Below, one piece after another: positions 15,031 to 61,294 of a stretch of DNA of 64,000 nt. The stretch is from an uncultured Sandaracinus sp. (GTDB lineage: Bacteria > Myxococcota_A > Polyangia > Polyangiales > Houyiibacteriaceae), in contig CAYXAP010000021.1 in the NCBI GenBank assembly GCA_964462035.1, positions 42,688-106,687 on the forward strand, read 5' to 3'. The stretch's first letter is position 1. The number at the start of each line of letters is the position of its first letter. A program made the translations under genes and the position numbers. Below the pieces are notes generated by a model that saw only the letters and a list, made by a program, of their open reading frames with translations, was not told the origin of the DNA and did no database searches.

Positions 15031-18000
15031 TCAGGGGCAGGTGTAGCTGCCGAGGTCGGCGACCGTGAGCGCCATTCCGCTGTCGGTCTGCTCCCACTCG
15101 TCGGCAGGGCAGAAGCCGGTGTTGGCCGTGCGGCCGGTCGTGACGGTGCAGAGTCGGCTGATGGTGATGCTCTCGGTGCCGGGAGTCGTAGAGCAGCCGG
15201 GAGCGGTGGTGGCGTCCGGCCAGCTGCTGCCGGGGTCGATTCCGACGTCGCCGAACCGGTCCATCAGCTCCAGCCCCGTGCCGAGGTCGCACCAGAGCTC
15301 GACCACGTCGTCGCCGTTGAACGAGAGGACGCTAGCGATCTCGTCGCAGCTGGCGCCGATCGTGGGCGGCGAGCTGCCGCAGAAGACGTAGCTCGCGCCG
15401 GTGGCGAGTGTCGGCGCGCTGGTCAGGTCGCCCGAGGACGCGAGGGTGGTGCCACCGTTGCTGTAGCGGTGGAGCTGGCAAGTGGCGAGGTCGGCGGTAC
15501 CACCGATGTTCGTGACCTCGACCGCCTTGTCGTTGCCGTTCTCGTAGTACTCGGTGAAGAGCAGCACGGGGGCGCCGGCGAAGCCGCTGAACATCGCGGT
15601 GTTGGGCGTGCCCACGCCGGTGCCGAAGTCGTCGGTCACCGAGCTGGCCACGGTCACCGTGTAGGTGGTGCCGCCAGCCTGAGCCGACGTGGTGAGGGTC
15701 ACCTGGTTGCCGCTGGCGCTCGCGGCGCTGGCGGTGAGGCCGTTGTCGAAGGTGAACTGCGAGCCATCGCCCATCACGCTCGCCGCGTCGACGGGCACGT
15801 CGAAGGTCACCACGACGGTATTGGCGTTCGTCGCAACCGCGCTGGCGACGACCGGGGCCGGACAGCTGTTGATGGTCAGGTCGGCCTCGACCCATCCGCT
15901 CGGCTGAGCGGTCGTGTCGAAGCGCCACATGGCACCTTCGACCGTGACGTTGCAGCCCTGTCGAACGCCGGTCGAGGCGACGACGGTGTCCGGCAGGCGG
16001 AGCCGAAGGTCCGTGTCCCCAGTGACGCCCGTCGTCTCCATCACCGCGCCCGAGTGGTCGGTGCCGGCGAAGGTGAAGGCACCGGTGAGGTCACCGGTGA
16101 TGGCGAGCAGCTCGCTCTCGTAGTCGCCGAGGGCGCTGACCAGGTCGGTGGCAGAGCTCAGGTCCTGACGGATGGCGTCGACGTCGAACCCGGTGGTGAC
16201 CGTGGTCAGCCCGGTGATCGCCGTGACCCGCTGATGAGCGTCGACGGTAGTCAGCTCGGTGGCCGTGAAGGTGATGCCGTCACCGACCGAGAGGCCGCTC
16301 GGGTCGACCTCCACGAAGATGGCCGGACCGGCGGTCTCCGCCTGGACGAAGAAGCCCGCGGGGTCCCCGCCGACGGCCGGCTTGATGTAGGTCACGTAGA
16401 CGAGGTCCACGTCGACGTCGATGGTGCCCGGCGACGCGCCGCGGATGGTGGTGATGTCATCGGTGCCGAAGGGCGCGATGGTGAGCATGCCGTTGTTGCC
16501 GGGGGCGTAGGGCGTGGCGTCGCTCGTACCGGGGCCACCGGTGTTGCAGTAGAGGAAGCTCGAGCCACCATCGACGCTGAAGCGGTAGACGTAGTCCCAA
16601 TCCCCCGGCGTCGGCGGAGCCACGAGGTCGGACTGGTACTCGTCGTTGTTCGGCTCGCCGGCCGCGGTGCCGTCGTAGCCGGTGTTGGCGGTGGCGGCCT
16701 GCCAGGTCCAGCCGGCGGCGCTCGAGGCGTCGGTGCCGCGGGGGCCGTAGCCGAGCTCGGCGACCAGGTCGGGGTCCACGTCGGTGCCGGTGGTCGCGTC
16801 GGTGATGCCCATCGCGTAGACGCGGCCGTAGACCGTGTCGGACTCACCGGGCACGAGGCTCAGCGTGTCCGGGAACTGGGTCCGGCAGAAGCCGGGGAGG
16901 GTGGCCGGGCAGCCCGGGTTGGCGCTGCCGGGCGTGCCGAGGTGCTCGCCGGCGCCGCCCGCGTCGAAGTACGCGGTGCTGCCGAAGCACCAGTTGGCGG
17001 GATCGTTCGAGTCGGCCATCGCCGTGGCCGAGGGGTCGCGGGACACCGAAGCGGCGTTCGCGTCGGGCCAGGTCGGGCCGCCATCGTACATGAGCATGTC
17101 GATCGGCGTGCCGCCGCAGGTGAGCGTCAGGGTGTCGCCGCCATTGTTCAGGGCGCGCTCGAGGAGTGCGTCCGGCATCGTCGGCAGCCCGTTGCTGGCC
17201 ATGTCGAGGGAGCTGGCCAGGACGATGAAGCCGTTGGCGGGGATCACGAGCCCGGTCAGCGTCTGGCTGCCGGCGGCGTCCGCCAGGATGCAACCGTCGA
17301 GGTTCAACGGCATCGCCGTGGCGTTGACCAGCTCGAGCCACTCGGCGTCGGCGTCGGTCAGCGGCGTCCCCGGGTCGTACATGAACTCGTTGAAGAGCAC
17401 CTGGCCCGCGGTGGGCGCCGGCGCGGTCACCTCGCAGGTGAAGGTCGTGCCGTTGCAGGCCTCGCCGAGGCCGGTGCAGGTGCCGCAGTCGAGCGCGGTG
17501 CCACAGCCGTCGTCGGGCATGCCACAGCTGGCCGCGGCGCAGACGTCGGGGGTGCACTCGCACATGTTCGTCGTCGTGTTGCAGGTGCCATTGGCGCCGA
17601 GCCCGGAGCAGTCGGTGCCGCAGTCCACGGTGCCGCCGCAGCCATCGTCGATGGTGCCGCAGTCGCCCGCGCCGCAGGTGTTCGCGACGCACTCGCAGAG
17701 GTTGGTGCCGGTGTTGCAAGTGCCGTTGGCGCCCTCGGCCGCCACGCAGGTCGCGTCGCCGCCGCAGTCGAGCGTCGTGCCGCAGCCGTCGTCGACCGAG
17801 CCACACTCGGCGCCGAGGCCCTCACAGGTGTTGGCGGTGCACTCGCACATGTTCGTGGCGGTGTTGCAGGTCGCGGCGCTGCCGACGGCCGAACAGTCGG
17901 TGCCGCAGTCCACGGTGCCACCGCAGCCATCGTCGATCGTGCCGCAGTCACTGGCGCCGCAGGTGTTGACGGTGCACTCGCACTCGTTCGTGCCGGTGTT

Positions 18001-18387
18001 GCAGATGCCGTTCGCACCTTCGGTGGCGACGCAGGTCAGGTCGCCACCGCAGTCGAGCGTCGTGCCGCAGCCGTCGTCGATGGCGCCGCACTCGGCGCCG
18101 AGGTCCTCGCAGGTCATGGGCACGCAGGCGTCACTCGTTCCCATGTCCTCGGCCATCCCCATGTCCGGGTCGACCATCCCCATGTCCTCGACGGGGCCCA
18201 TGTCCTCTTCGGGGCCCATGTCTTCGTCCGGCATGGCCGCGTCTTCCGGCATGGTGGCGTCCTCCATCGGCACGGTGGCGTCCTCCATCGGCGTGGAGCC
18301 GTCGGGGTCGGTGCCGCCATCGTCGCCGCAGGCGAGCGCGAAGACGCAGAGGGAGAGGGAAGCGAATCGAAGGGTGCGTGTGTTCAT
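15031..18387 (-). CDS. Large surface lipoprotein: Cys-rich repeats, two lamin-tail-like domains, OB-fold-like and Ig-like domains
   Basis: ALAC-GDD lipobox; CGxIDDGCG repeats; VLFNEFMYDP..EWLEL and LLFTEYYE..KAVEVTN LTD starts; GFFVQ motif; VVVTFDVPVD Ig-like. Confidence 0.8.
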   Translation of the reverse strand: MNTRTLRFASLSLCVFALACGDDGGTDPDGSTPMEDATVPMEDATMPEDAAMPDEDMGPEEDMGPVEDMGMVDPDMGMAEDMGTSDACVPMTCEDLGAECGAIDDGCGTTLDCGGDLTCVATEGANGICNTGTNECECTVNTCGASDCGTIDDGCGGTVDCGTDCSAVGSAATCNTATNMCECTANTCEGLGAECGSVDDGCGTTLDCGGDATCVAAEGANGTCNTGTNLCECVANTCGAGDCGTIDDGCGGTVDCGTDCSGLGANGTCNTTTNMCECTPDVCAAASCGMPDDGCGTALDCGTCTGLGEACNGTTFTCEVTAPAPTAGQVLFNEFMYDPGTPLTDADAEWLELVNATAMPLNLDGCILADAAGSQTLTGLVIPANGFIVLASSLDMASNGLPTMPDALLERALNNGGDTLTLTCGGTPIDMLMYDGGPTWPDANAASVSRDPSATAMADSNDPANWCFGSTAYFDAGGAGEHLGTPGSANPGCPATLPGFCRTQFPDTLSLVPGESDTVYGRVYAMGITDATTGTDVDPDLVAELGYGPRGTDASSAAGWTWQAATANTGYDGTAAGEPNNDEYQSDLVAPPTPGDWDYVYRFSVDGGSSFLYCNTGGPGTSDATPYAPGNNGMLTIAPFGTDDITTIRGASPGTIDVDVDLVYVTYIKPAVGGDPAGFFVQAETAGPAIFVEVDPSGLSVGDGITFTATELTTVDAHQRVTAITGLTTVTTGFDVDAIRQDLSSATDLVSALGDYESELLAITGDLTGAFTFAGTDHSGAVMETTGVTGDTDLRLRLPDTVVASTGVRQGCNVTVEGAMWRFDTTAQPSGWVEADLTINSCPAPVVASAVATNANTVVVTFDVPVDAASVMGDGSQFTFDNGLTASAASASGNQVTLTTSAQAGGTTYTVTVASSVTDDFGTGVGTPNTAMFSGFAGAPVLLFTEYYENGNDKAVEVTNIGGTADLATCQLHRYSNGGTTLASSGDLTSAPTLATGASYVFCGSSPPTIGASCDEIASVLSFNGDDVVELWCDLGTGLELMDRFGDVGIDPGSSWPDATTAPGCSTTPGTESITISRLCTVTTGRTANTGFCPADEWEQTDSGMALTVADLGSYTCP

Positions 18388-18532
18388 CAGGGAAAGATCT
18401 CCGGCCGGTTCACGAGAGCCTATTGCTCGCGGACTCCGGGCCGTGCAGCGTTTCAGTGACACGCGAGCACCGGAGGATCCAGCCGGCGGGTGGCGCTTGA
18501 CCGAGGTCGGGCCTCCGTTCGAGCCTCTGCGC

Positions 18533-18793
18533 ATGGCTCGCGTCGACGTCGCTCCGATCCTCGCGCGGCACCTCACGGTGCCCGAATGCGAGGTCCCTGG
18601 GGAGACCGTGTCGCAGGTGCTCGAAGGGCTCTTCGCGAGCCACGAGCGGCTCCGTGGCTATGTGCTGGACGACCAGGGCGGCCTTCGGCGGCACGTGGTG
18701 ATCTTCGTGGACGGGGAAGCCGTTCGCGACCTCTCGCGTGCGGTGGGGCCTTCGAGCGAGCTGGTGATCATGCAGGCCCTGTCCGGGGGCTGA
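18533..18793 (+). CDS. MoaD/ThiS family ubiquitin-like protein
   Basis: 86 aa beta-grasp pattern (RHVVIFVDGE) ending QALSGG. Confidence 0.9.
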   Translation: MARVDVAPILARHLTVPECEVPGETVSQVLEGLFASHERLRGYVLDDQGGLRRHVVIFVDGEAVRDLSRAVGPSSELVIMQALSGG

Positions 18794-23778: not shown

Positions 23779-24842
23779 TCCTCGGCGGCAGGTTCGGGGA
23801 CGTCGACGAGCGAGAGATGCGCCGGAGCCATGGCGCCGCAGACCGCGTGCACCTCGACGCCCCGCGTCTCTCTCGGGCGCGTCAACGTCAGCGCGGTGAT
23901 TCCGTCGTCCATCAGCAGCGGGGTCGGGGCGCGGGCGCCTTCGACGGTCGAGAGGATGCCGATCTCGAGCTCGTGCCGATCCCACGAGGTGAGGTCGTCG
24001 GTCGCAGCCAGGGTGATGATGCGGAGGTCTTCGGCGCCGACGGCTTCGAAGTAGACCCGCAGCACCGAGCGTCCGGTCGGTGTCGTCGCGACCACCGCTC
24101 CGGGCCGCGCGAGCGCCGTCTCGCCCGCGAGCTCCAAGGCGAGCGCGCGGGTGTCCTCGGCAAAGGCGCGTCCGTCGCTCGAACGCGCGAGGCCGATCGT
24201 CCCGGTGTCGGTCGCCTCGAAGAGCAGCACGAGCTGGCCGTCGAAGCGGACGACCGTCGGCGAGCGTGCGTCGGTGACGATCGGCCCGGCGACCTTGGTG
24301 AAGGCGCCGCCGACGCTGCTCGCCTCGGCCACGCCGATGCCGCCCTCGGCGGCGTAGTAGAGGCGCGCGGTCCCGTCGTCGTCGACGTGGACCCACGGGT
24401 CGAAGACCGACTCGCCCTCCCACGCTTCGCTGGCCTCGAGGACCATGGGCCCACCGTTGAAGCTCAGCGCACCCTCGAAGACGTCGGTGCCGTCGACGGG
24501 TCGGGCCTCACTGCGGAAGATCCGGCTGGGCCCCAGCTGCGCGAAGTCGAGCTCGCCCTCGGCCAGGTCGGGGTTCCGGTCGGGCGGCTCGTCGACCTGG
24601 TCCGCACCGTCGTAGAAGAGCATCTCGTCGGCGACCATCGACCGCTGCACCGCCTGCCGGTTGAAGTAGATGCGGCCGTTCGGCGCCGCCAGACCACCGG
24701 TCTCCTCGGCGGTCAGCAGCCGGAAGGGACCGGCGCCACTGGACTGGATGATGTCTGGGAAGTCGGTCTCCGCGCCGAGCGTCGCGCAGGCGACGAAGGC
24801 GAGCGTCATGGCCGCGAGGCCGAGGCTGCGTTGCCGCATCAT
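23775..24842 (-). CDS. Lipoprotein, glycoside-hydrolase-like (GH43/32/130-type) beta-propeller
   Basis: AFVAC lipobox; WE..SVFDPWV, RLYYA, IGVAEA, SPTVV, IGLARSSDG blade motifs. Confidence 0.6.
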   Translation of the reverse strand: MMRQRSLGLAAMTLAFVACATLGAETDFPDIIQSSGAGPFRLLTAEETGGLAAPNGRIYFNRQAVQRSMVADEMLFYDGADQVDEPPDRNPDLAEGELDFAQLGPSRIFRSEARPVDGTDVFEGALSFNGGPMVLEASEAWEGESVFDPWVHVDDDGTARLYYAAEGGIGVAEASSVGGAFTKVAGPIVTDARSPTVVRFDGQLVLLFEATDTGTIGLARSSDGRAFAEDTRALALELAGETALARPGAVVATTPTGRSVLRVYFEAVGAEDLRIITLAATDDLTSWDRHELEIGILSTVEGARAPTPLLMDDGITALTLTRPRETRGVEVHAVCGAMAPAHLSLVDVPEPAAEE

Positions 24843-26185
24843 TCGAACGCGACCTCCAGCGTGGCGCCCACGCCGAAGAGGTGGCCGCTCGAGCGGTAGT
24901 CGCCGACCGCGTCGACGAGCGACTCCTTGATGTGCTCGCGCTCGGGTAGGTAGCTGTAGAGCGCGTGCACGTCGATGTTGAGTGACCCGGGCAGGGTCGG
25001 CTCGAGATCGGTGAGCTGCAGCCCGATGCCAGCGCTGATCGTGTGCTTGTCGTTGTCGACGAAGTTCAGCGTCCCGGTCTGGGCGGGGAAGGGCGAGTTC
25101 TCGTAGACGTACCCGAGCCGGGTCCGCAGCGTGTAGGCCTCGGTCTGGGCCGCGGTGATCTCGATGCCGACGCGCGGCACGAAGGTGTCGTGCAGGTTCA
25201 GCGGGAGGGGCGGGAGCGAGGTGATCTCGTCCGGGATGTTGATGCCGAGACCTGGGGGCGGGTCGGCCGAGAGCAGGATCTCCTGATCGGCGATCAGGCT
25301 CGGGTGCTTCGAGTAGTCGTACCAGGTGAGCTCGAAGGCGAGGTGCAACCACGACGTCGGGTCGAAGACGGCGCCGACCGAGACCTGCTGCGGCCCGAAC
25401 ATGCTGGTGGTGTCCGCGATGAGCGAGAACTGGAGGGGGATCGGGTCGGCGCCGATGCCGATGATGTTCGCGTCGGCGAGCGCGACGATGCGGTTTCGCA
25501 GCTCGAACTCGCCGCGGTAGGCGATGCCGAACGAGAACTTCTCGTGCGGGTGGATCTGGATGCCGGCCTGCGGGTAGCGGATCGACGTCAGGTCGCCGGC
25601 GAACTGATGCTCCAGCCGCGACATCGACTCGGGGTTCGTGGCGTGGGCGTCGCCACGCAGATCCAGGGTCAGGTCGGAGGGCGACTGGAAGGTGATGCCG
25701 GCGCCGATGGTCAGCCAGGGCGCGGGGCTGACCGCGATGTTGGTCGCCAGGTAGATGCGGCCGGGGCGGGTGTCGTACATCTCCCAGCGCGGCCGGGTCA
25801 CCACCGCCGAGCGCGTTCGTGCGAGCCGCTGGTCGGGCAGGTGGAGCGCGAGGCCGAAGGCGAGGCGCGCGTTGCCGAAGGTCGCTGGCGCGACCAGGCC
25901 GACCAGCATCGCGCCGTGCCGCTCCACCGACGATCGCTCGTCGTTGATGTTCAGGTAGGGGCTGACGCTGAGGTAACCGACGGTGAGGCGGAGCTCGCCG
26001 CTGCGGACCAGGCCGGCCGGGTTGTAGTAGTTGGCGCTCGAGTCCTCGACGTCGGCCGTGACCGCACCGCCGAGGCTGATCGAACGGGAGAAGAGGCCGT
26101 GCGTATCGGGCGGCGTCGCCTCGGCGCGGCTCGCAGCGAAGACGACGACGAGCGCGAGGAGCGCGGCAGCGAAGCGGTTCACCAT
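24839..26185 (-). CDS. FadL/OmpP1/TodX family outer membrane transporter
   Basis: Signal peptide, SRSISLGGAVTA, YYNPAGL, RLGYVYE, terminal aromatic beta-strand. Confidence 0.85.
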   Translation of the reverse strand: MVNRFAAALLALVVVFAASRAEATPPDTHGLFSRSISLGGAVTADVEDSSANYYNPAGLVRSGELRLTVGYLSVSPYLNINDERSSVERHGAMLVGLVAPATFGNARLAFGLALHLPDQRLARTRSAVVTRPRWEMYDTRPGRIYLATNIAVSPAPWLTIGAGITFQSPSDLTLDLRGDAHATNPESMSRLEHQFAGDLTSIRYPQAGIQIHPHEKFSFGIAYRGEFELRNRIVALADANIIGIGADPIPLQFSLIADTTSMFGPQQVSVGAVFDPTSWLHLAFELTWYDYSKHPSLIADQEILLSADPPPGLGINIPDEITSLPPLPLNLHDTFVPRVGIEITAAQTEAYTLRTRLGYVYENSPFPAQTGTLNFVDNDKHTISAGIGLQLTDLEPTLPGSLNIDVHALYSYLPEREHIKESLVDAVGDYRSSGHLFGVGATLEVAFE

Positions 26186-27477
26186 TCGATCGCTCCCGTC
26201 CAACCACCGGCGACGATCCAGCCGCTGGTGACCATGTTCGAGGCGCCGCCGTCGACCGCGGGGATGTCGTGGGTCCGTTCGACCACGCGGTGCAGCTGGC
26301 CGAAGGCGTCGAGCCGGATGACCGCCGGGCTGTCCGGCACGTGATAGGCCATGCCGAAGCCGCCGGTCAGGACGTGGCGGTCGGAGTCGAGCAGGCGACG
26401 CGGGAGCATCACTCCGTCGCGCGGCTCACCCTGCGAGTCGCGACCGGGCACGATCGCCGCGGGCGGCGAGGGGGTCATCTCGTAGGCGTAGCCGAAGCGG
26501 AGCGCGCCCTCGGTGTTGCGGCGGCGCCCCACGTACTCGAGCGCGAGCCGCGGCGAGATCGTGTCGCGGAGGTCCGGGGCCACCGGGAAGAAGGAGCTCT
26601 CGGTCGACTTGCCCACCAGACCGGGCCACGCGGACCAGCGGCGGTAGGTGACGTGGAGCGCCGCCATGAGGTTCGGCGTCGCCTGCCACGCGACCTCGGC
26701 GGCGAGGGTGTGCGGGTCGTACTGCGGGGTGGCGGTGATGTTGATCCGTGGCAGCTCGACCGGGAGCCCCTCGACGATGATGTCGAGGTCGATGTCCGAG
26801 CGGACCTCTTCGCGATAGACGAGACCGAGCTTCCAGTCGCCGGTGTCGTAGGTCATGCCGACGATCGGGTTGTAGCTGACCAGCAGCTGCGTCTCGGTGA
26901 GCGAGTTGAAGGAGTTGGCTTCATCGAGGGTGACGATCAGCCGACCGGTGATGGTCGCGAGCGCCGACACGCCGATGCCGAGCTTGAGCCCCGGCACCAG
27001 TCGGCCGAGATCGATGCCGAGACCGATCGCCAGGTTCACCGACTGCGTTCGCGCCAAGAGCGCCCACTGGGGTGTCTCCGCGAAGATGATGTCGGTCCGC
27101 AGCACCGTGTTCGCGGGCGTGTAGAAGCCCGCGCCCAGCGTGAAGACGTCCTCGAGCACGCCGCCGAAGGGCAGCGGCAGGTGGAAGCCGATGGTGCTGC
27201 CGCGGTAGGCCTCGAGGTCGAAGTCGTCGCCGTCGAGCGTGAGCTCGAACGACGCGGCCTGCAGACCCAGGCTGATGCCGCTGCGTTCGGCACGCGCCAA
27301 GCCCGCGGGGTTGGCGAAGACCGCCTCGTAGTCGTTGGAGAACGACACGCCGGTCATCCCCAGGGCCTGATGGCGAGCGCCATAGCCGAAGACGTCGGGA
27401 GGCGTGGCCTCCACGGCGGAAGGCGCGAACACGACGGCGACACCCAGCACCGTCAGGTGAACGAAGAAAGCACGCAT
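26179..27477 (-). CDS. FadL/OmpP1/TodX family outer membrane transporter (paralog)
   Basis: Signal peptide, GARHQALG, FANPAGL, RFGYAYE, terminal W. Confidence 0.85.
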   Translation of the reverse strand: MRAFFVHLTVLGVAVVFAPSAVEATPPDVFGYGARHQALGMTGVSFSNDYEAVFANPAGLARAERSGISLGLQAASFELTLDGDDFDLEAYRGSTIGFHLPLPFGGVLEDVFTLGAGFYTPANTVLRTDIIFAETPQWALLARTQSVNLAIGLGIDLGRLVPGLKLGIGVSALATITGRLIVTLDEANSFNSLTETQLLVSYNPIVGMTYDTGDWKLGLVYREEVRSDIDLDIIVEGLPVELPRINITATPQYDPHTLAAEVAWQATPNLMAALHVTYRRWSAWPGLVGKSTESSFFPVAPDLRDTISPRLALEYVGRRRNTEGALRFGYAYEMTPSPPAAIVPGRDSQGEPRDGVMLPRRLLDSDRHVLTGGFGMAYHVPDSPAVIRLDAFGQLHRVVERTHDIPAVDGGASNMVTSGWIVAGGWTGAIEW

Positions 27478-27579: not shown

Positions 27580-28458
27580 ATGGACTCTGGAGAGTTTCGA
27601 GTGCTCGACGCGGTCGCCGACGCGACCCTCGCCCGCACCGAGGTCGTGCGGCGATCCGGCGAGCCGCACTCGGTGCTCAAGGCGCTCGGGAAGGCGCACC
27701 CGGATTGGTTCGCGCAGAGCTCGGACCGCTTCCAGCTCTCGCCCGCTGGGCTCGAGGCGCTCGCCGCCGCTCGCCGCGCCCGCGCCCTCGGATCCGAGCG
27801 CACCAACGACGAGCTCGCCGAAGCCGTCCGCGCCCTCGGTGCCAGCCGCACCATTCGCCGCGACCTCGACCAGGTCTACGCGACGCCCGAGAGCGTGGTC
27901 CGACGCGCCCGCTTCCTCGTCGCCGAGGGCTGCGCGGAGGGCTCGCTCCTCTTCCTCGGCGACGACGATCTGACCTCGGTCGCCACGCGCGCGCTCGCCC
28001 CGGCGATGGCCCTCTCGGTGCTCGAGGTCGACCCCGAGCTGGTCGCACTCCTGAAGGGCGCCGAGGTCGACGTCCGCGAGCACGACCTCCGCGAGCCCGT
28101 CCCGAACGAGCTCACGAAGCGCGACGCGGTCTTCATGGACCCGCCCTACGCCATCGAGGGCTTCGCCCTCTTCGTCGCGCGCGCCATCGAGGCGCTCCGC
28201 GAAGGAGGCACGCTCTACCTCGCGTTCGGGGCGAGCCGGCGGGCGCCCGACCGGACCCTCGCCAAGCAGCGCCTACTGGCGGAGTGCGGCCTCGTGGTCT
28301 GCGAGGTGCGCCGCGACTTCACCGAGTACGACGGCGCCGAGTCGATCGGCTCGCGCTCCGACCTGTGGGTCCTGCGCACCGCACCCCAGACCAAGGCACC
28401 GAGCATCGGCCCCGGCGGTGAGCTCTACACCCGCCGCAAGCCCAAGCGCCGCAGCTGA
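27580..28458 (+). CDS. BpsA-like (DUF43) branched-chain polyamine synthase family
   Basis: DLDQVYATPES, LFLGDDDLTSVA, HDLREP, FMDPPY. Confidence 0.8.
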   Translation: MDSGEFRVLDAVADATLARTEVVRRSGEPHSVLKALGKAHPDWFAQSSDRFQLSPAGLEALAAARRARALGSERTNDELAEAVRALGASRTIRRDLDQVYATPESVVRRARFLVAEGCAEGSLLFLGDDDLTSVATRALAPAMALSVLEVDPELVALLKGAEVDVREHDLREPVPNELTKRDAVFMDPPYAIEGFALFVARAIEALREGGTLYLAFGASRRAPDRTLAKQRLLAECGLVVCEVRRDFTEYDGAESIGSRSDLWVLRTAPQTKAPSIGPGGELYTRRKPKRRS

Positions 28459-29091
28459 TCAGCTGGCGACGGCGGCGGGGGCGATGTCGTTGGCCGCGAG
28501 CGCCTCCGCGAGCCTGCCCAGGGTCTCGATGACCACCTCGCGCGCTTCGTGGGGATCGTCGATGCCGACGATGACGCCCCGCTCGTGCTCGGAGAGGGCG
28601 GCGTAGCGCTGCGCGGCCCAGACCAGACCCTGGATGATCACGCGCTTCTCGGTGTTGGACCAGCGGCTCATCCACGGTGAGCTCGAGATGAGCGTCAGGA
28701 AGCGGTCGACCTCGGCGAGACGCTCTTCCGGTAGGCCCCAGGCTTCGACCCAGGCCGCGAGGCGCAGGCGGACGTCGTCCTCGTTGCGGAAGAGGTGACG
28801 CATCATCCGCCGGGACATGTGACCGGGGTTCGGGCCGCGGAGCCGAAGCCAGGGCCTCAGGATGTCCGCGATGCCGACGTGGAAACGCTCGAGCGCCGCT
28901 TCGAGCAGCGCCGCCTTCGAGGTGAAGTAGTAGGAGACCGTGCCGCTGCTCAGCCCCGCTCGTTTCGCAATGGTGCGATAGGAGAGGTTCGCGTCGCCCG
29001 TGCCCGCTCGCATGGAGCGGACGGCATCGAGGATGCGGTCGACCGGGTGCTTGTCGTCAGGAGCCGGATGGGATGAAAGGGTGCGGGCCAT
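28459..29091 (-). CDS. TetR family regulator
   Basis: RILDAV..SYRTIAKRAGLSSGTVSYYFTSKAALL; start 29091 or 29139. Confidence 0.85.
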   Translation of the reverse strand: MARTLSSHPAPDDKHPVDRILDAVRSMRAGTGDANLSYRTIAKRAGLSSGTVSYYFTSKAALLEAALERFHVGIADILRPWLRLRGPNPGHMSRRMMRHLFRNEDDVRLRLAAWVEAWGLPEERLAEVDRFLTLISSSPWMSRWSNTEKRVIIQGLVWAAQRYAALSEHERGVIVGIDDPHEAREVVIETLGRLAEALAANDIAPAAVAS

Positions 29092-29241
29092 GTCGCACCT
29101 TTCTGCACATAGCTTGCCAGCCCGATCCGCGAACACCATTCCACGAAACTACGAGGCTTTTCGGAATCGTCCGCGCCGGACGACCCCTGACGGGCGGGGT
29201 TCGTCGTCCCCAGCGCCTGCTGGAGTGGTCACTGAAAGATT

Positions 29242-29778
29242 TCAGCGGCGGCGGACGAGGGCGGCCACGCCCCGGGCGATGTCGTCCCGCTCGGCGAGCG
29301 TGAAGCCCTCGCGCTCGTGGACGATTCGCCCACTGCGGTCGACCCAAACGGTGAAGGGCGCGCCGCGGCGAGGGTTCAGGCGGCTGGTCACGGCCGTGTC
29401 CAGGTCGCTGACCACGGGGAACTCGAGACCCAGGCGGTTCACGGTCGGGGCTGCTCGGGCGATGGTCTCGGCGCCGTCCATGCTGACGGCCACGACCTGC
29501 AGGCCGCGCTCTTTGTAGCGCTCGTAGAGCTGCTGGTAGAGGGGCAGCTGCTGCTTGCAGGGCTCGCACCAGGTCGCCCAGAAGATGATGACCACGGGGT
29601 GCTCGCCCAGGTGGTCGCTCATCTCGAAGTTCCCGCTGACCGGCCCACCGGGGATGGCCGGCAGGGTGAACGCCGGCGGACGGCTACCGACCCGGGCCTC
29701 GGCCTGGGGTGGGGCCATCAGGCCCAAGAGTATGGCCGCGGCGAGGAAGGGGACGGAGAGGGTCGAGATCAGGCGCAT
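29242..29778 (-). CDS. TlpA/ResA family exported thiol-disulfide oxidoreductase
   Basis: Signal peptide, FWATWCEPC. Confidence 0.92.
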   Translation of the reverse strand: MRLISTLSVPFLAAAILLGLMAPPQAEARVGSRPPAFTLPAIPGGPVSGNFEMSDHLGEHPVVIIFWATWCEPCKQQLPLYQQLYERYKERGLQVVAVSMDGAETIARAAPTVNRLGLEFPVVSDLDTAVTSRLNPRRGAPFTVWVDRSGRIVHEREGFTLAERDDIARGVAALVRRR

Positions 29779-29821
29779 CGGGTAGGTCCTAGCAGACGGA
29801 GGAGGGGAGGGCCGGATTCAC

Positions 29822-31876
29822 TCAGAGCCGGAGCACCAGCTCGCCGAGGAATCCTTGGAAGAGCGGGACGTCGCGGCAGACGCCGCCCGAGCAGATGCGA
29901 CCACCAGGTTGGGCGCCGCCGAAGATCCGCAGGAAGCTCCCTTCCATGAAGTCGAAGCGGGCCTCGACGCCGGGGTAGAGAACCGGGGCGTCGGATCCCC
30001 GCTTCTCGTTGTTCCAGGCGAGTACGGGAGAGACTCGGATGCGGCCCTGCCACGAGTAGGTGATGGAGAGCGAGCCACGGACGTAGTCGTCGAAGTCGAG
30101 CGCCGAGGCGTTCCACTTGCTCTCCTGCCGGTGGATGAGGCTCAGCTCCACGCTGTGGGGACCGGTGACGATGCCGGCCTCGAGCTGGCCATGGATCACC
30201 CGCCAGTGCAGGTCACCGCCTTCGCGGGCGTCCCGCGCCCCGAGATAGCGGTCATCGCGGTAGCCGCCGTTGAGATCGAAGGTCCACCCGAGGCCGGTCG
30301 GTTGTCCGCGGATGACCCTCTGGACCTTGAGGGTGAGGTGGTTGAGCCAGAAGCCGTCGCTGGACCAGGGGTCGCCCTGGTCATTGGGGTCGCTGTTTCG
30401 GTGCTCGGCGTGGCCGTAGCTGAGCAGAGCGGCCGACAGGCCCCAGCCGCCCGGGGGGAAGCCGTAGTCGAGCTGCAACCGACCGCCGCGGGCGTTGCTC
30501 TGGTTCTCCGGCCGTTCGTAGTCGCCCTCGAGATCGGGCACGGCGCTGTAGATGCGATGGGCCGGTGCGGCGACGTCGTCGGCGACGTAGAACCGGCGGT
30601 AGTCCTTCCACTCGAACGCCAGCGTGGCTCGCTCCGAGGCTTCGACCTGGAGCGACGCATAGACCGCTCGCCCGGAGTTGCTGCTGACCCCGCGGAGCTG
30701 GTCGTCGAGCTCGCGCCGGGAGAGGTTGGCCTCGCCGTAGAGGCTGACCTTGCCGCACGCGAGGCGTGGGAGCTCGAGGTGCCAGCCGACGATGTCGAGA
30801 TTCGTCTGTCGGTCGAAGCCGGTCGAGTCGTCGGTCGCGAACATGTAGCGCGCGCCGTGCGCAGCGAGCTCGAAGCCGGGCAGCCGGTAGCCGAGCTCCG
30901 CGCCCATGATCCAGTCGCGGGTGTCGGGGGACTCCCAGAGCGAGCGGCGCGGTCGGTCCGCAGGTTCTCGGATGATCGCCAGAGTGTTGGGATCCAAGTT
31001 CTGCGGGTTGGCCGCGCCGCCCAGCGCCTTGAAGAAGATCTTCCCGTTGTCGTAGGCGAGCTGACCGCCTCGAAGCGCGGTGTCGGTGCCCAGGATGTCC
31101 AGGCGCCGGAAGCTCAGCGCGATGCCTCGGCCGAGCACTGCGTAGCTGTCGAGGGCGTCGAGCTTCCAGGGGCCGCGCTCCCAGTGGACCGAGAAGCGCT
31201 CGAGTCGGGCGTCGCCTTCGACGCAGCTGCCGGTCGCGACCTCCGGGCAGTCGGACTGGGCGAGGGGCAGGAAGAAGTCGAGGCGCGCTCCGATGCGGAG
31301 CTCCTCGCCCTGCATCGCGCCCTCCAGTCGCTCCCAGGCGCTGAAGAAGTGGTCGTTGAGCTCGTTCGAGTCGAAGTTCTCGAAGCGATACTGCGCACGG
31401 GTGGTGCTGGTGAGGGTGAAGGTGGTCTCGCCGAAGACCGGCAGCACCGGCGGACCGTTCTCGTCGGCCTCGGCGAGCACGGCGTCGAAGTCCCACTCGT
31501 CGCCGCCCTCGGCGTCTCCCTCATCATCCTCGTCGAGGTCGTCGGGGAGCTCCCAGTCGTCGCCGCCGTCGATCTCGTCGAGGTCGTCGGGGAGCTGGTA
31601 GTCGTCCGCCGGCTCTGACTCCGAGCCAGAGTCCGACTCGGAGCCTGACTCCGACTCCGACTCCGACGGACGATCGCCGGTCTCCGACTCCGACGGACGA
31701 TCGCCGGTCTCCGACTCCGACGGCCGATCACCGACGTCCGATTCCGACGGCTGATCGCCGGCGTCCGACTCCGATTCCGCATCTGCTCCCGCCCCCGTCT
31801 GTGCGAAAGCGGGCCCCCCAAAGAGGAGAGCCCGCCCTAGCAGAAGGAGCGCGAGCGCTGTGACCCTCGCGCGCAC
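29822..31876 (-). CDS. Outer membrane beta-barrel-like protein with C-terminal CxxxxC (DUF6029-like)
   Basis: Signal peptide, acidic repeat N-terminus, LGRGIALSF..DTALRG, amphipathic strands, GGRICSGGVCR near C-terminus. Confidence 0.7.
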   Translation of the reverse strand: MRARVTALALLLLGRALLFGGPAFAQTGAGADAESESDAGDQPSESDVGDRPSESETGDRPSESETGDRPSESESESGSESDSGSESEPADDYQLPDDLDEIDGGDDWELPDDLDEDDEGDAEGGDEWDFDAVLAEADENGPPVLPVFGETTFTLTSTTRAQYRFENFDSNELNDHFFSAWERLEGAMQGEELRIGARLDFFLPLAQSDCPEVATGSCVEGDARLERFSVHWERGPWKLDALDSYAVLGRGIALSFRRLDILGTDTALRGGQLAYDNGKIFFKALGGAANPQNLDPNTLAIIREPADRPRRSLWESPDTRDWIMGAELGYRLPGFELAAHGARYMFATDDSTGFDRQTNLDIVGWHLELPRLACGKVSLYGEANLSRRELDDQLRGVSSNSGRAVYASLQVEASERATLAFEWKDYRRFYVADDVAAPAHRIYSAVPDLEGDYERPENQSNARGGRLQLDYGFPPGGWGLSAALLSYGHAEHRNSDPNDQGDPWSSDGFWLNHLTLKVQRVIRGQPTGLGWTFDLNGGYRDDRYLGARDAREGGDLHWRVIHGQLEAGIVTGPHSVELSLIHRQESKWNASALDFDDYVRGSLSITYSWQGRIRVSPVLAWNNEKRGSDAPVLYPGVEARFDFMEGSFLRIFGGAQPGGRICSGGVCRDVPLFQGFLGELVLRL
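31655..31770. repeat. About four 27-bp tandem repeats encoding GDRPSESET
   Basis: GACTCCGACGGACGATCGCCGGTCTCC-like units seen directly; boundaries approximate. Confidence 0.75.
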
Positions 31877-31886
31877 CGAGCCGGAT

Positions 31887-32528
31887 TCAGTCGCCCAGGA
31901 CCTCGTCGATCGCGCTCTTGAGCGAGGTCAGGCCATCGCTGGCCCCGTTCTCGCGGAAGCGAATCACGCCCTGGCTGTCGACGATGATCGTCGAGGGAAG
32001 CGCGTTGTCCGGGAAGAAGATCCCGGTGAGCTGCGCGGGGTCGATGAGCTCGACGTTCGAGAGCCCGAAGCGGTCGACCCAGCCCTGGCAGTACGCGAGG
32101 TCCGGAGCCGAGTAGTCCGCGGTCTGGGTGAGGATCTGGATGACCCGCACGCCCTGACCGGCGTAGAAGTCGTTGATCTCCGCCTCGAGCTGCATGCTCT
32201 CGGCGATGCAGGGCGGGCACCAGCCCGCCGCGATGCTGATGACGGTCAGCTGGTTCTCGCAGAACGACTCGTTGTAGAAGGAGTAGTCCGCGCCGCTGCA
32301 GTCCTGCAGGGTGAACCCACTGAGGTTGCGGCCCGGGATGGCACCGAAGCCACTCGTCGGGACCCGGTCCTGGCAGGAGAGGGCGTCGGGTGTCCCGAGG
32401 TCCTCGTCCATGGGCGTGCCCATGTCCATGCCGGGCACGTCGGAGACATCGGTCCCGTCCGTCGCGTCGTCATCACCACAGCCAGCGAGCGCCACCAGCG
32501 CACCCACGATCAAGCTCAGCTTCTTCAT
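31887..32528 (-). CDS. Thioredoxin-fold (TlpA-like) lipoprotein
   Basis: ALAGC-GDDD lipobox, AGWCPPC, LPSTIIVD. Confidence 0.88.
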   Translation of the reverse strand: MKKLSLIVGALVALAGCGDDDATDGTDVSDVPGMDMGTPMDEDLGTPDALSCQDRVPTSGFGAIPGRNLSGFTLQDCSGADYSFYNESFCENQLTVISIAAGWCPPCIAESMQLEAEINDFYAGQGVRVIQILTQTADYSAPDLAYCQGWVDRFGLSNVELIDPAQLTGIFFPDNALPSTIIVDSQGVIRFRENGASDGLTSLKSAIDEVLGD

Positions 32529-32557
32529 CACAATCCTCGTTCCACCTAGTCCCCGGG

Positions 32558-33547
32558 TCACATCGGGGCGCAGACCGACCGGGTACCACCACCCGACGCC
32601 GGCACACTCGTACACTCGAACCCTGCCGGGCAGGGCGTCTCCGCGCAATCCACCGGGAAGCAAATCCCGTTGGTGAAGGTCTTCGGCCCGCTCGAGAGCT
32701 GGACCGTCTTGGAGCACTCGTAGCCCTCCGCCTCGCGGCAGTCGGCGTTGGTGTCGCAGACCTTCAGGCACACGCCCGGGCTCCCCTGGACCAGCTCGCC
32801 GGTCGGGTAGCAGACGTTTGCGTCCGGGCAGACTCCGGTCGGGTAGGCGTCGCCGAAGTACAGGTCGTTGCTGTTCCAGCCGGGCTCGAGCGCGCAGTTG
32901 CCGATGCAGGTGCCGCCGTTCCAGCCGGTCGGCGTCCCGCCCTCGTTGCGCTCCGTGATGCAGTTGCCGCTCAGGCAGGCGTCGTCGGTCGCGCAGGCTT
33001 CGCCGGTCCGGCCGCCCTCGGTCGGGACCTCGCCCTGGGGGAGGCACTCGGCCGCGTAGGGGTTGCAGTCCGATCGATACCCGCAGTCGTCGCTGTCCAT
33101 GCAGAGCCCGACGCACAGGCCGAAGCTGGGGCGAGTCGGGTCGATCTGGCCCTTGCCGGCGCAGACGTAGTTCTCGCGGCAGTCGGTCGAGTTGGAGCAG
33201 GCCTGCTCGCAGATGTTCTGGCCGCCCTCGCCGGTCGGGATGCAGTGGTTGAAGACCACGCCGTCGTCGCAGGGGCCGCGGTCGGCGCAGGGGAGGGTGC
33301 AGTGACCCTCCGGCCAGCCCTCGGGGCCGGTCCGGCAGAACGCCGTCGGGCCCATCGTCGCCTGGCACTGCTCGTCGATGATGCAGGGCCCGAAGAGCGA
33401 GCTGGGCGGGGGCGGGCCCATGTCCGTCTCCGGCTCGCTCATGTCGATGCCCTGGTCCGGGATGCCCGTGATGTCGCCGTCGTCGTCGCCACAGGCGGCG
33501 AGGAGGAGGAGCGCCGAGGCGCCGAGAGTAAGGTAAGTGCGTGCCAT
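32558..33547 (-). CDS. Cysteine-rich lipoprotein
   Basis: LLAAC-GDDD lipobox; repeated CxxxCxxxxDC and WxGGxC motifs. Confidence 0.78.
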   Translation of the reverse strand: MARTYLTLGASALLLLAACGDDDGDITGIPDQGIDMSEPETDMGPPPPSSLFGPCIIDEQCQATMGPTAFCRTGPEGWPEGHCTLPCADRGPCDDGVVFNHCIPTGEGGQNICEQACSNSTDCRENYVCAGKGQIDPTRPSFGLCVGLCMDSDDCGYRSDCNPYAAECLPQGEVPTEGGRTGEACATDDACLSGNCITERNEGGTPTGWNGGTCIGNCALEPGWNSNDLYFGDAYPTGVCPDANVCYPTGELVQGSPGVCLKVCDTNADCREAEGYECSKTVQLSSGPKTFTNGICFPVDCAETPCPAGFECTSVPASGGGTRSVCAPM

Positions 33548-33612
33548 GGAGAACCCGTTCCACCTAGCAGGGGGCGGTACCCACGGCAAGGCACGCAGGA
33601 GGTGAAAGGCCT

Positions 33613-34551
33613 TCAGTTTCCGAGTTTCAGGGCCCGGACGACCCAGGCGACGAGATCCGCGATCACCTCGTCCCGATTGGTCTCGTTGACCACCTCGTGC
33701 CGGCCGCCCGGCCAGAGCTGGAGGGTCACGTCCTTCAGCCCGTCGCCGCGATAGGCCTCCACGAGGTTCCGGGCTCCCTGGGCTCGGCCGATCGAGGTGT
33801 CGTCGCTCCCGGCGACCACGTAGATCGGCTTCTCGCGAGGAATCGACGCCAGGTGGGCGGGCTTCGTCAGGCTGGGGATCACGTCGAGCAGCTGGATCCA
33901 GGTCTCGATCGAGACGTCGAAGCCGCAGAGCGGGTCGGCGGCGTAGGCGTCGACCGCGGCCGGGTCCCGCGAGAGCCAGTCGAAAGCGGTTCGACCCTCG
34001 AAGGGCCCGTTGAAGTCCTCGAAGGTCAGCTTGCGGATGAGGGCCGAGACACCGCGCTTGCCGAGCCGCAGCCGCTCGGCCCGAGCGACGAGCCGACCGA
34101 TCGCCGCGATGAAGGGGGGCTTGCCGCCGTTGCCGCTGATCGCCCAGGCGTCGGCGTCGTCCGGGTTCTGGCCCAGCAGCGTCTGGGCCACGTAGCCGCC
34201 CATCGAGTGCGCGAAGATCGCCCTTGGCAGCCCGGGGTGCTCCGCTTGCAGGGCCTGAGCCCGCTCGTGCAGATCGCCGACCAGCTTCTGCCAGCCGTCC
34301 TCGTCGCCGATGTGACCCGGCGCCTCGCCCGTCGGCACCGAGAGGCCATGGCCCCGGTGGTCGTGGGCCGACACCAGGAAGCCCTCGGCGGTGAACGCGC
34401 GGGCCACGTGGTCGTAGCGAGCGGCGTGCTCCGCCATCCCGTGGACGATCTGGAGCAGGGCCGTCGGCTCGCCCTCGGGCGCCCACGTGTAGGTCGCCAG
34501 CTCGGTGCCGTCGTGGGTGCGGTGGGTACCGCGCTCGAATCCCTCGGTCAT
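33613..34551 (-). CDS. Alpha/beta hydrolase (lysophospholipase/monoacylglycerol lipase-like)
   Basis: VHGMAEH..RY, DHRGHG, AHSMG, WLSRD, RHEVVNE. Confidence 0.92.
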   Translation of the reverse strand: MTEGFERGTHRTHDGTELATYTWAPEGEPTALLQIVHGMAEHAARYDHVARAFTAEGFLVSAHDHRGHGLSVPTGEAPGHIGDEDGWQKLVGDLHERAQALQAEHPGLPRAIFAHSMGGYVAQTLLGQNPDDADAWAISGNGGKPPFIAAIGRLVARAERLRLGKRGVSALIRKLTFEDFNGPFEGRTAFDWLSRDPAAVDAYAADPLCGFDVSIETWIQLLDVIPSLTKPAHLASIPREKPIYVVAGSDDTSIGRAQGARNLVEAYRGDGLKDVTLQLWPGGRHEVVNETNRDEVIADLVAWVVRALKLGN

Positions 34552-34623
34552 GGCGGGAGCGTAGCGCACCCGTCCCCGAGCGAGGGTCGCCTTCGCGATC
34601 GGCTCCGCTAGACTGCGCGGCCG

Positions 34624-36726
34624 ATGATCCGGGGAAGCTGGTTCGCGGCGCTGCTCGTGGCGTCGTCGCTCGGGGGCTGCGGTGACGACGGCGGATCGCC
34701 CGACGGCTCGCTGCTCTGCACGGCGGACTCGCAGTGCGACGACGGCGTCTACTGCAACGGCATGGAGCGCTGCGTGCCGGGGGCGGGCGCCAGTCCGCTC
34801 GGCTGCGTCGCGGGCGTTCGCCCCTGCGAAGGGGTCGGCGCGTGCCTGGAGATCGAGGACCGGTGCGACGCCGACTGCGAGACCCCGGACGGCGACGGCG
34901 ACGGGGTCGAGCGCGTCGGCTGTGGTGGCGCCGACTGCGACGACGAGGACGACAGCCGCTTCCCGGGCAACCCGGAGATCTGCGACGCGGAGGGCGTCGA
35001 CGAGGACTGCGACCCGGCGACGACGGGCGCGCGCGATCGCGATCGCGACGGCTACCTCGACGCGAGCTGTTCCGACGGCATCGGGCTCGATTGCAACGAC
35101 CTCGACGCGTCCATCTCGCCAGCGAGCACCGAGGCCTGCAACGGCGTCGACGACGACTGTGATGGCGACGTCGACGAAGGGGTGGCGGTCGACGGCTTCG
35201 TCGACGCCGACGCCGACGGCCGCGGCGACGGAGAGCGAGCGATGCGGGCGTGCCCCGGGAGCGTTCGCTTCTCGCTCTACGGCGACGACTGTGACGACAC
35301 CGACCCCTCCGTGCACCCGACGCAGAACGAGATCTGCGACGGCCTCGACAACGATTGCGACGAGGCGATGGACGAGGACGCCCGCGCGGTGGTCTGGTAC
35401 GAGGACGCGGACGGCGACGGCTACGGCCTCGTCTACGGCGAGCGGCGGATCAGCTGCGACCCGATCGAGGGCTTCTCGCTCCTCCCGACGGACTGTGACG
35501 ACACGCTGGCGGCCGTGAGCCCGGTCGGTGTCGAGGCCTGCAACGGGCGCGACGACGACTGCAACGGCAGCGCCGACTTCGCCGTGGCGGGCGACGGGGA
35601 GGACGACGACCGCGACGGAGTCGCCGACGTGAGCTGTGGTGGCACGGACTGCAACGACACCCGCGCGGAGATCGCGGAGGGCTCGGCCGAGCTCTGCAAC
35701 GGGCAGGACGACGACTGTGACTCGATGGTCGACGAGGGCGTGGACGCGACCGATTGGTACGTCGACGGCGATGGCGATGGCTACGGCGCTGGACCGGCGA
35801 TGAGCCTCTGCGTGGACTCGAGCGTGCTCGTCGCGCGGAGCGGCGACTGCGACGACGCGCAGCCCGCGGTCTTCCCGTCGGCGCCGGAGCGCTGCGACGG
35901 ACTGGACCAGGACTGCGACGGAGACACCGACGAAGGCGCGTCCTGCTCGCTCCCCAACGCTCGCGCCGTCTGTTCGGCCGGTCGCTGCGAGGTGAGCGAG
36001 TGCGTGGGGGTCTTCGGTGACTGCAACCTCCGTGCGGTCGACGGATGCGAGACGTCGCTCGACTCGATGGCGAGCTGCGGGCTCTGCGCCGCGAGCTGCA
36101 ACGTCGCCTGCGATGGCGGCTTCTGCAGCAACATCCCCTCGGAGCTCACCTTCCAGGTGACCACGCTCGAGCCGGGGGGCGCCGGGCCGCTGGTCGGCGC
36201 GGGTGTGTACCTGCCCCTCACTCGGCCGCTCCGGACCTTCGTGACGGACGACGCGGGGCAGGTCGACATCGCGATGCCCATCCCCACGTGGGTCGCCGTG
36301 AGCCAGGCTGGCTATTGGCCGACGACCTTCCCCTACGACGGCGGCAGCATCCCGATCATCCCCGGGTACTCGTTGGGTGGGGCTCAGGTGATGCCCGTAC
36401 AGCGGTCGGAGCTCACGACCGCCGGCATCGCTCAGGATCCGAGTCTCGGCATGTTGGTCTTGGTCGACACCTCGGGTGGCGTCGGTCCGCAGGTGGACGC
36501 GTCGCTCAGCCTCCCCTTCGACGAGAAGATCGCCGTGGACCGCGCGCCCACCCTGACCCGAACCGGAGCCGCCACGCTGGGCATGGACAATCCCATGCTC
36601 GTCTTCACGAACGTGGTGCCCGGCCGGGTGGAGGTCGACGTGCTCCCTTGTCGCATCAGCGACACGAACGTCCGGGTCTATCCCGGTGCGATCACCGTCA
36701 TGCGAGTGACCTGTTTCTCCGGCTGA
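34624..36726 (+). CDS. Lipoprotein with MopE-like putative metal-binding repeats
   Basis: LGGC-GDD lipobox; repeated DCDD..P.A.E.C.G.DDDCDG..DEG and DxDGDG. Confidence 0.85.
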   Translation: MIRGSWFAALLVASSLGGCGDDGGSPDGSLLCTADSQCDDGVYCNGMERCVPGAGASPLGCVAGVRPCEGVGACLEIEDRCDADCETPDGDGDGVERVGCGGADCDDEDDSRFPGNPEICDAEGVDEDCDPATTGARDRDRDGYLDASCSDGIGLDCNDLDASISPASTEACNGVDDDCDGDVDEGVAVDGFVDADADGRGDGERAMRACPGSVRFSLYGDDCDDTDPSVHPTQNEICDGLDNDCDEAMDEDARAVVWYEDADGDGYGLVYGERRISCDPIEGFSLLPTDCDDTLAAVSPVGVEACNGRDDDCNGSADFAVAGDGEDDDRDGVADVSCGGTDCNDTRAEIAEGSAELCNGQDDDCDSMVDEGVDATDWYVDGDGDGYGAGPAMSLCVDSSVLVARSGDCDDAQPAVFPSAPERCDGLDQDCDGDTDEGASCSLPNARAVCSAGRCEVSECVGVFGDCNLRAVDGCETSLDSMASCGLCAASCNVACDGGFCSNIPSELTFQVTTLEPGGAGPLVGAGVYLPLTRPLRTFVTDDAGQVDIAMPIPTWVAVSQAGYWPTTFPYDGGSIPIIPGYSLGGAQVMPVQRSELTTAGIAQDPSLGMLVLVDTSGGVGPQVDASLSLPFDEKIAVDRAPTLTRTGAATLGMDNPMLVFTNVVPGRVEVDVLPCRISDTNVRVYPGAITVMRVTCFSG

Positions 36727-61274: not shown

Positions 61275-61294
61275 GGTCGACCCCCCCGAGCGGC

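Follow-up and report, generated by a model that had tools for sequence, protein, structure and literature searches.

The stretch of DNA analysed here is a window of 64,000 nucleotides (nt) from an uncultured Sandaracinus sp. (assembly GCA_964462035.1, contig CAYXAP010000021.1, positions 42,688–106,687 of the forward strand), with a G+C content of about 70%. Between positions 29242 and 33547 of this window, reading of the open reading frames (ORFs) confirms four genes packed on the minus strand, coding for a cysteine-rich lipoprotein, a lipoprotein with a thioredoxin fold, a putative outer-membrane beta-barrel related to family DUF6029 and an exported thioredoxin of the TlpA/ResA type. The cysteine-rich lipoprotein (32558–33547, 329 residues) contains 33 cysteines and has the lipobox LAAC, with the lipid-bearing Cys19 encoded at 33491–33493. 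The thioredoxin-fold lipoprotein, called redoxin lipoprotein below (31887–32528, 213 residues), has the lipobox LAGC, with Cys17 at 32478–32480, and a WCPPC site at 32208–32222. The barrel gene (29822–31876, 684 residues) starts at GTG and begins with a signal peptide (31802–31876) that ends in AFA, while the gene for the Sec-exported TlpA-like protein (29242–29778, 178 residues) encodes a signal peptide ending in AEA and a WCEPC site at 29557–29571. The gaps between the four genes, in the order given, are 29, 10 and 43 nt; the nearest outer neighbours are an alpha/beta hydrolase gene at a distance of 65 nt and a TetR gene at 102 nt. Four tightly spaced minus-strand genes of these kinds had been described in an initial annotation of the window, with which the ORFs, motifs and gaps agree.

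A scan of positions 28000–35500 gave no terminator or promoter above the level of shuffled sequences. In a metatranscriptome library, contigs about 90–93% alike cover the genes of the TlpA-like protein, the redoxin lipoprotein and the cysteine-rich lipoprotein, and a single contig of 157 nt spans the boundary between the two lipoprotein genes; this is weak evidence for a joint transcript, as such libraries can hold DNA. The body of the barrel gene has almost no cover, which says nothing on whether the barrel is expressed.

The barrel protein matches the Pfam family DUF6029 (PF19494) over residues 619–680 only, with 26.3 bits against a gathering cut-off of 27 (24.3 bits in a six-frame search); the match spans a cysteine hairpin and the last strand. 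A word-seeded search found 127 relatives of the barrel among 8000 scored candidates, with names pointing to Polyangiales/Myxococcota. PF19494 is annotated on 115 of the 120 that were listed, and the protein is therefore a divergent member of the family, not an outsider. Searched exhaustively with a profile, the family yields 1211 cluster representatives with an expectation value (E) of 1e-3 or better, while a profile search of the sequences in the PDB found none.

An AlphaFold2 model of the barrel, calculated from an alignment of 44 sequences, has a predicted local distance difference test score (pLDDT) of 80.5 and a predicted template-modelling score (pTM) of 0.76, and contains 24 strands over approximately residues 152–684. 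Even strands are joined to the following odd strands by two to four residues, except for one connection of nine residues (strands 16–17), and the loops that lead from odd to even strands are for the most part long, with up to 34 residues. All fold matches of the model are outer-membrane barrels. In VIA-align, the 24-stranded ushers FimD (Z 16.7) and PapC (Z 16.3) come out on top, followed by 18-stranded porins, with MtrB at rank 17 (Z 13.3) and Wzi absent from the 50 best matches; Foldseek gives generic barrel likeness alone, with a template-modelling score of about 0.4. The DUF6029 protein, which carries a signal peptide, is thus predicted to form a large beta-barrel in the outer membrane, and the earlier designation as barrel-like stands. 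Ahead of the barrel, residues 26–140 (31457–31801) form an acidic, disordered region; in the model, residues 14–111 are disordered and acidic. These 115 residues are extremely acidic, containing 26 Asp, 21 Glu and 17 Ser, and the extension varies among homologues. Part of it is encoded by a 27-nt tandem repeat (4.4 copies, 31655–31774), translated as SESETGDRP units.

A conserved feature of the barrel lies near its carboxy-terminus. The DUF6029 motif G-G-x-x-C-x4-C-R-x-x-P-x-F-x-G, which precedes the last strand, is present as GGRICSGGVCRDVPLFQG at residues 658–675. The cysteine hairpin itself, GRICSGGVCRDV (29867–29902, with Cys662, Cys667 and Arg668), connects strands 23 and 24 and is flanked by Pro657 and Pro671. 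The initial annotation had the protein end in GGRICSGGVCR; this sequence occupies residues 658–668, and a further 16 residues, DVPLFQGFLGELVLRL, follow it and form the last strand. Cys662, Gly665, Cys667 and Arg668 are invariant in all 44 aligned barrel relatives, and a C-x(2-6)-C pair is found within the last 40 residues of 133 of the 137 distant representatives inspected, the remaining four being fragments whose matches end before the profile does. The cysteine pair is thus conserved, as the reading in the initial annotation requires. Many members of DUF6029 contain just these two cysteines. The protein studied here has a second pair, C210-x7-C218 (31223–31249), located in the loop that joins strands 3 and 4 and specific to its clade: Cys210 is conserved in at least 90% of the sequences in the 44-sequence alignment, and in the distant clade described below it is not invariant.

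According to DSSP analysis of the model, residues 659–663 and 666–670 form a short extra hairpin, in which Cys662 and Cys667 face each other across a Gly-Gly turn. Both ends of barrels of this kind usually lie in the periplasm, and this rule, together with the pattern of loop lengths in the model, places the long loops and the connection between strands 23 and 24 on the extracellular side. The prediction therefore puts the cysteine pair on the extracellular tip of the last hairpin and not midway down the barrel lumen, where the initial annotation had looked for it. In this position, the periplasmic TlpA-like protein would reach the pair only before insertion of the barrel or by entering its lumen.

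The TlpA-like protein combines a thioredoxin fold, a W-C-x-x-C site and an export signal, as expected for the TlpA/ResA type. It matches the Pfam families AhpC-TSA (E 1.1e-20), Redoxin and Thioredoxin_8, and its closest sequences in the PDB are 3gl3, ResA (4nmu) and 2m72 (E 9e-13 for the latter). Its scores are below the curated cut-offs of the NCBIfam models for ResA (NF002854, 83.6 against 170) and TlpA (NF047696, 42 against 230), so that by sequence it belongs to a subfamily separate from those covered by these models. The subfamily is a dedicated one: when a profile built from the Polyangiales TlpA orthologues was run on 80 distant loci, the TlpA genes adjacent to barrels scored 108–167 bits (two genes cut by contig ends scored 70–73 bits), and the other thioredoxin-fold ORFs scored 42 bits or less. 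Selenocysteine in TlpA was considered and rejected, as reading of the loci showed that the in-match TGA stops that had been flagged precede the start codons; there is thus no selenoprotein among the TlpA matches. The genome contains a second exported TlpA-like paralogue, with a WCAPC site (contig C11, 164180–164668; E 2e-29 to the subfamily profile) and no adjacent barrel; the ORF preceding it has a putatively DsbA-like tail.

In the redoxin lipoprotein, the lipobox is followed by a linker of about 35 acidic, low-complexity residues and then by the thioredoxin fold with its WCPPC site. Its Pfam matches are Redoxin (E 1e-10) and AhpC-TSA, and the best match among PDB sequences is CcmG/DsbE (2b1k, E 3e-6); with 33.5 bits, it stays below the cut-off of 123.15 of the DsbE model TIGR00385. 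Matches to Pfam Omp28 (at E up to 0.1) and SCO1/SenC were not found. Five cysteines, Cys17, Cys77, Cys104, Cys107 and Cys147, are invariant in 37 orthologues, which therefore keep the lipidated cysteine, the W-C-x-P-C site and a further pair, Cys77/Cys147. No ccm genes are present in the gene list of the window, of which ten ORFs were scanned against Pfam, and type IX secretion features are absent from the locus. A single gene with a DsbD_TM domain (CcdA/DsbD type) is present in the genome, unlinked to the four genes (contig C38). A complex prediction of barrel residues 140–684 with residues 48–213 of the redoxin lipoprotein scored 0.01, with the mark at 0.32, and is evidence neither for nor against an interaction.

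Evidence that these proteins belong together comes from the linkage of their genes. Close relatives of the locus were collected as a set of 71 loci, all from Myxococcota metagenome-assembled genomes by title (three partial barrels were dropped), 61 of them with at least 2500 nt of upstream sequence. Both lipoprotein genes lie upstream of the barrel gene in the same order in 58 of these 61, an arrangement far beyond chance. In the 52 loci with both flanks, a TlpA gene is located downstream on the same strand in 29 and upstream in divergent orientation in 10, and is missing from the flanks of the other 13. A distant clade was sampled with 14 DUF6029 representatives, 33–51% identical to the lead sequence, for which a metagenome scan provided the 80 loci mentioned above. 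Here, the gene immediately upstream of the barrel encodes a TlpA orthologue in 67 of the 69 loci whose upstream sequence extends over at least 700 nt, and in 40 of the 46 with at least 1500 nt, the TlpA gene is itself preceded by a second thioredoxin-fold ORF, nearer to the lipoprotein profile. Among 58 such second ORFs, 57 contain a C-x-x-C site; a lipobox is present in 40, eight are cut by contig ends, and ten have none that the pattern recognises.

Sampling of the phylum gave the same picture. Using a threshold of E 1e-10 or better for the barrel profile and E 1e-25 or better for the TlpA-subfamily profile, 136 and 130 of 301 genomes contain the barrel and the reductase, respectively: 122 have both, 14 the barrel alone, eight the TlpA subfamily alone and 157 neither. 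Both positions are listed for 117 genomes, and the two genes are on the same contig in 111 of these and within 1.5 kb of each other in 105; TlpA is upstream of the barrel on the same strand in 99 genomes and downstream on the same strand in three, including the source genome. The link between barrel and TlpA is not due to chance. The initial annotation stated, for Bacteroidota, that DUF6029-like genes adjoin TlpA genes; this adjacency is seen here for the phylum Myxococcota and for a distant metagenomic clade. The usual gene order of the family is lipoprotein, TlpA, barrel, and the clade of the source organism has a rearranged version of this trio, with TlpA last, enlarged by the cysteine-rich lipoprotein.

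The cysteine-rich lipoprotein belongs to no Pfam or NCBIfam family. A word-seeded search found 23 relatives, and 36 orthologues keep 29 of its cysteines without exception. A confident model was obtained (pLDDT 89.6, pTM 0.81), and searches of the PDB gave no neighbour: the best Foldseek match has E 0.11, VIA-align found none of 48,161 chains at Z of at least 2, and a profile search was empty. In an Atlas feature search, scores of 0.84 were obtained to Myxococcota clusters and nothing else. Going by the model, the protein may have a new disulfide-rich fold. Its gene is upstream of the barrel in 59 of the 61 loci and is specific to the Polyangiales clade; two Sandaracinaceae loci (L021 and L024) contain a second copy about 2.3 kb upstream of the first. 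With 32 cysteines beyond the lipid anchor, it is a natural candidate for disulfide reshuffling, and thus a candidate client of the neighbouring thioredoxins in this clade.

Genes outside the group of four are conserved with it to a much lower extent. Among the 71 close-relative loci, the upstream hydrolase is kept in six, the TetR gene in two and a FadL-like pair in seven; as they are kept in the nearest relatives only, these neighbours reflect lineage synteny and do not belong to the module. The FadL-like pair consists of two tandem genes for outer-membrane transporters of the FadL/TodX type (24839–26203 and 26179–27477), downstream of the TetR gene. The 114 ORFs that flank the trios of the distant clade contain no recurring redox, metal, polysaccharide or secretion function; a fusion of an aldolase with a short-chain dehydrogenase/reductase recurs beside the trios within one sublineage only. 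The window also encodes several very cysteine-rich exported proteins (54759–58886, 58902–61415, 34624–36726 and 15031–18576). Its exported proteins include one of 1375 residues with 162 cysteines and 14 calcium-binding epidermal growth factor domains, and two with six to seven 'MopE' putative metal-binding motifs; a protein of 1181 residues has lamin-tail and immunoglobulin-like domains. That the four genes serve these other disulfide-rich proteins, as had been suggested, finds no support: the neighbours are not conserved with the module, and a cysteine-rich protein of 700 residues is conserved with it in just one of the 71 loci.

We lean, with moderate confidence, towards the view that the four genes form one operon encoding a dedicated reducing or isomerising thiol-disulfide module at the outer membrane, fed by CcdA/DsbD and with the cysteine-rich lipoprotein as client. 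Its parts would be a soluble periplasmic TlpA/ResA-like reductase (WCEPC), a redoxin lipoprotein anchored in the outer membrane (WCPPC), the DUF6029 barrel and the lipoprotein with 33 cysteines. Reducing power would enter the periplasm through the single CcdA/DsbD-type membrane protein of the genome and pass to TlpA. Together, TlpA and the redoxin lipoprotein would keep the cysteine pair of the barrel reduced or let it cycle, and would reduce or reshuffle the disulfides of clients at the outer membrane, in this organism those of the cysteine-rich lipoprotein; the barrel would be the fixed partner or scaffold of this thiol chemistry. What is firm is the self-contained group of a DUF6029 barrel with its invariant Cys-x4-Cys-Arg motif, a TlpA subfamily dedicated to it and a redoxin lipoprotein. 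The direction of electron flow, which partner reduces which, the location of both lipoproteins and the identity of the client are what we infer.

The argument for reduction or cycling is that thioredoxins of the reductase type constantly accompany a cysteine pair that can pair by itself. In the DsbA and DsbD pathways, a simple disulfide between consecutive cysteines needs no reductase; the presence of a reductase-type partner therefore suggests that the pair does more than staple the structure and that it, or clients at the barrel, is kept reduced or cycled. Several observations weigh against the proposed module. The cysteine pair is predicted, on the basis of the barrel model, on the extracellular side, away from the periplasmic reductase, and the contacts among the four proteins are inferred rather than taken from experiment or from a modelled interface. 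TlpA is missing from the flanks of the 13 close-relative loci mentioned above, and 14 of the 136 barrel-bearing genomes lack a TlpA-subfamily match at the threshold used; moreover, the genomes are related, so that the co-occurrence count overstates independence and no p-value applies. The Pfam score of the barrel sits just below its cut-off. Finally, the cysteine-rich lipoprotein is absent from the distant DUF6029 clade (one weak match in 80 loci) and can therefore not be the general client of the family.

Among known systems, the two redoxins are closest to the periplasmic reducing pathways that lead from DsbD or CcdA to TlpA, ResA and CcmG/DsbE. Both are exported proteins with AhpC-TSA/Redoxin folds and W-C-x-P-C sites, their matches among PDB sequences are to ResA, DsbE/CcmG and TlpA, and the genome contains a DsbD_TM gene. 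The differences are that both score below the curated cut-offs, that linked genes for cytochrome c maturation or for an oxidase are lacking, and that the known reducing pathways have no outer-membrane barrel as a fixed partner, whereas the module described here does. The barrel in turn differs from DUF6029 as described by PF19494 in its acidic amino-terminal extension of 115 residues and its second cysteine pair, and polysaccharide genes are absent from its surroundings. FimD and PapC (PDB entries 3ohn and 2vqi) are its best fold matches and have the same number of strands, 24; however, sequence identity is 8–9%, the plug and the amino- and carboxy-terminal usher domains are absent, and there are no pilus genes, so that the likeness is one of size and shape only. 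Like LptD, the barrel is very large, is encoded with a lipoprotein and has a conserved cysteine pair near its carboxy-terminus, where LptD has conserved disulfides; unlike in the LptD-LptE pair, there is no match to the OstA/LptD or LptE families, and the lipoprotein has a thioredoxin fold.

An arrangement that we consider unlikely, but which the parts list brings to mind, is the relay across the outer membrane proposed in the initial annotation, with thiol exchange proceeding from TlpA to the barrel, by way of the cysteine hairpin or of a contact in the lumen, then to a thioredoxin lipoprotein on the surface, which would reduce or isomerise surface proteins. None of the findings that the initial annotation named as grounds against this relay was made. 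As in MtrCAB (PDB entry 6r2q), the genes encode a large barrel together with two redox carriers, one periplasmic and one a lipoprotein, and the usual gene order of lipoprotein, TlpA, barrel is that of lipoprotein, carrier, barrel. This is an analogy only: none of the four proteins contains a C-x-x-C-H haem motif, thiol exchange needs direct contact, and the fold match to MtrB, given its Z-score and rank, is generic. A barrel of 24 strands would be as wide as the usher pores and would have room for a small domain, as in LptD-LptE and MtrAB, and the cysteine pair with its invariant arginine, on the predicted extracellular side, would be within reach of a redoxin at the surface; the lipoprotein has a long flexible linker and extra conserved disulfides. 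A lone pair at the outer rim, however, cannot itself bridge the membrane. The relay further needs the lipoprotein to be exposed at the surface, a position that cannot be read from its sequence, and no structure or model puts TlpA or the lipoprotein inside the barrel. In its conduit form, which seems to us improbable, TlpA would sit in the periplasmic mouth of the barrel and the redoxin lipoprotein at or in the outer mouth by the hairpin, maintaining in this clade a surface lipoprotein with 16 disulfides.

The genes may have other tasks altogether. It is quite improbable, in our estimate, that the barrel serves as transporter or porin for another cargo, for instance polysaccharide, with the cysteine pair as a structural staple and the redoxins purely as assembly helpers, which would prevent wrong oxidation of the pair or repair it on the way to the beta-barrel assembly machinery (BAM). 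The motif stands directly before the carboxy-terminal strand, which is the insertion signal of outer-membrane proteins, and a precedent is LptD, a barrel that needs disulfide rearrangement for its assembly. A published report describes similarity of Wzi-like barrels to DUF6029 in HHpred and suggests a role in polysaccharide secretion (PMC9603273). Polysaccharide-export genes, however, recur neither among the 114 scanned flanking ORFs nor in the window, and cysteines five residues apart pair correctly without a reductase or isomerase; two dedicated redoxins for a single staple, maintained over hundreds of genomes, would be costly. TlpA-family reductases are also known to prepare cysteine-based copper sites, as Bradyrhizobium TlpA does with ScoI and CoxB, and TlpA might accordingly keep the Cys-x4-Cys-Arg motif reduced for a thiophilic metal such as Cu(I). 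The invariance of the pair and of the adjoining arginine would suit such a function, which we nevertheless regard as very improbable: the motif contains neither His nor Met as a partner, none of the linked genes encodes Sco, CopA or a cytochrome oxidase, and the lipoprotein, which gives no SCO1/SenC match, has a C-x-x-C site instead of the C-x3-C of Sco proteins.

No description of a thiol-disulfide module of the kind favoured here was found among the titles and abstract openings of published work. The known bacterial disulfide pathways end in the periplasm, and the module raises the question of whether Gram-negative cells have control over the thiol chemistry at their outer membrane and outside it, and by what means. 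A reductase subfamily that is tied gene-for-gene to an uncharacterised barrel family across hundreds of genomes, usually together with a redoxin lipoprotein, is a concrete system in which this can be tested, and the myxobacterial version adds a candidate client, the lipoprotein with 33 cysteines, for which there is a confident model and no match in the PDB. If the conduit form were true, reducing power from CcdA/DsbD would reach the cell surface, and the module would be the disulfide-exchange counterpart of the porin-cytochrome complex. If the module merely assembles or services the barrel, it would still be a new folding system dedicated to a widespread, uncharacterised protein family.

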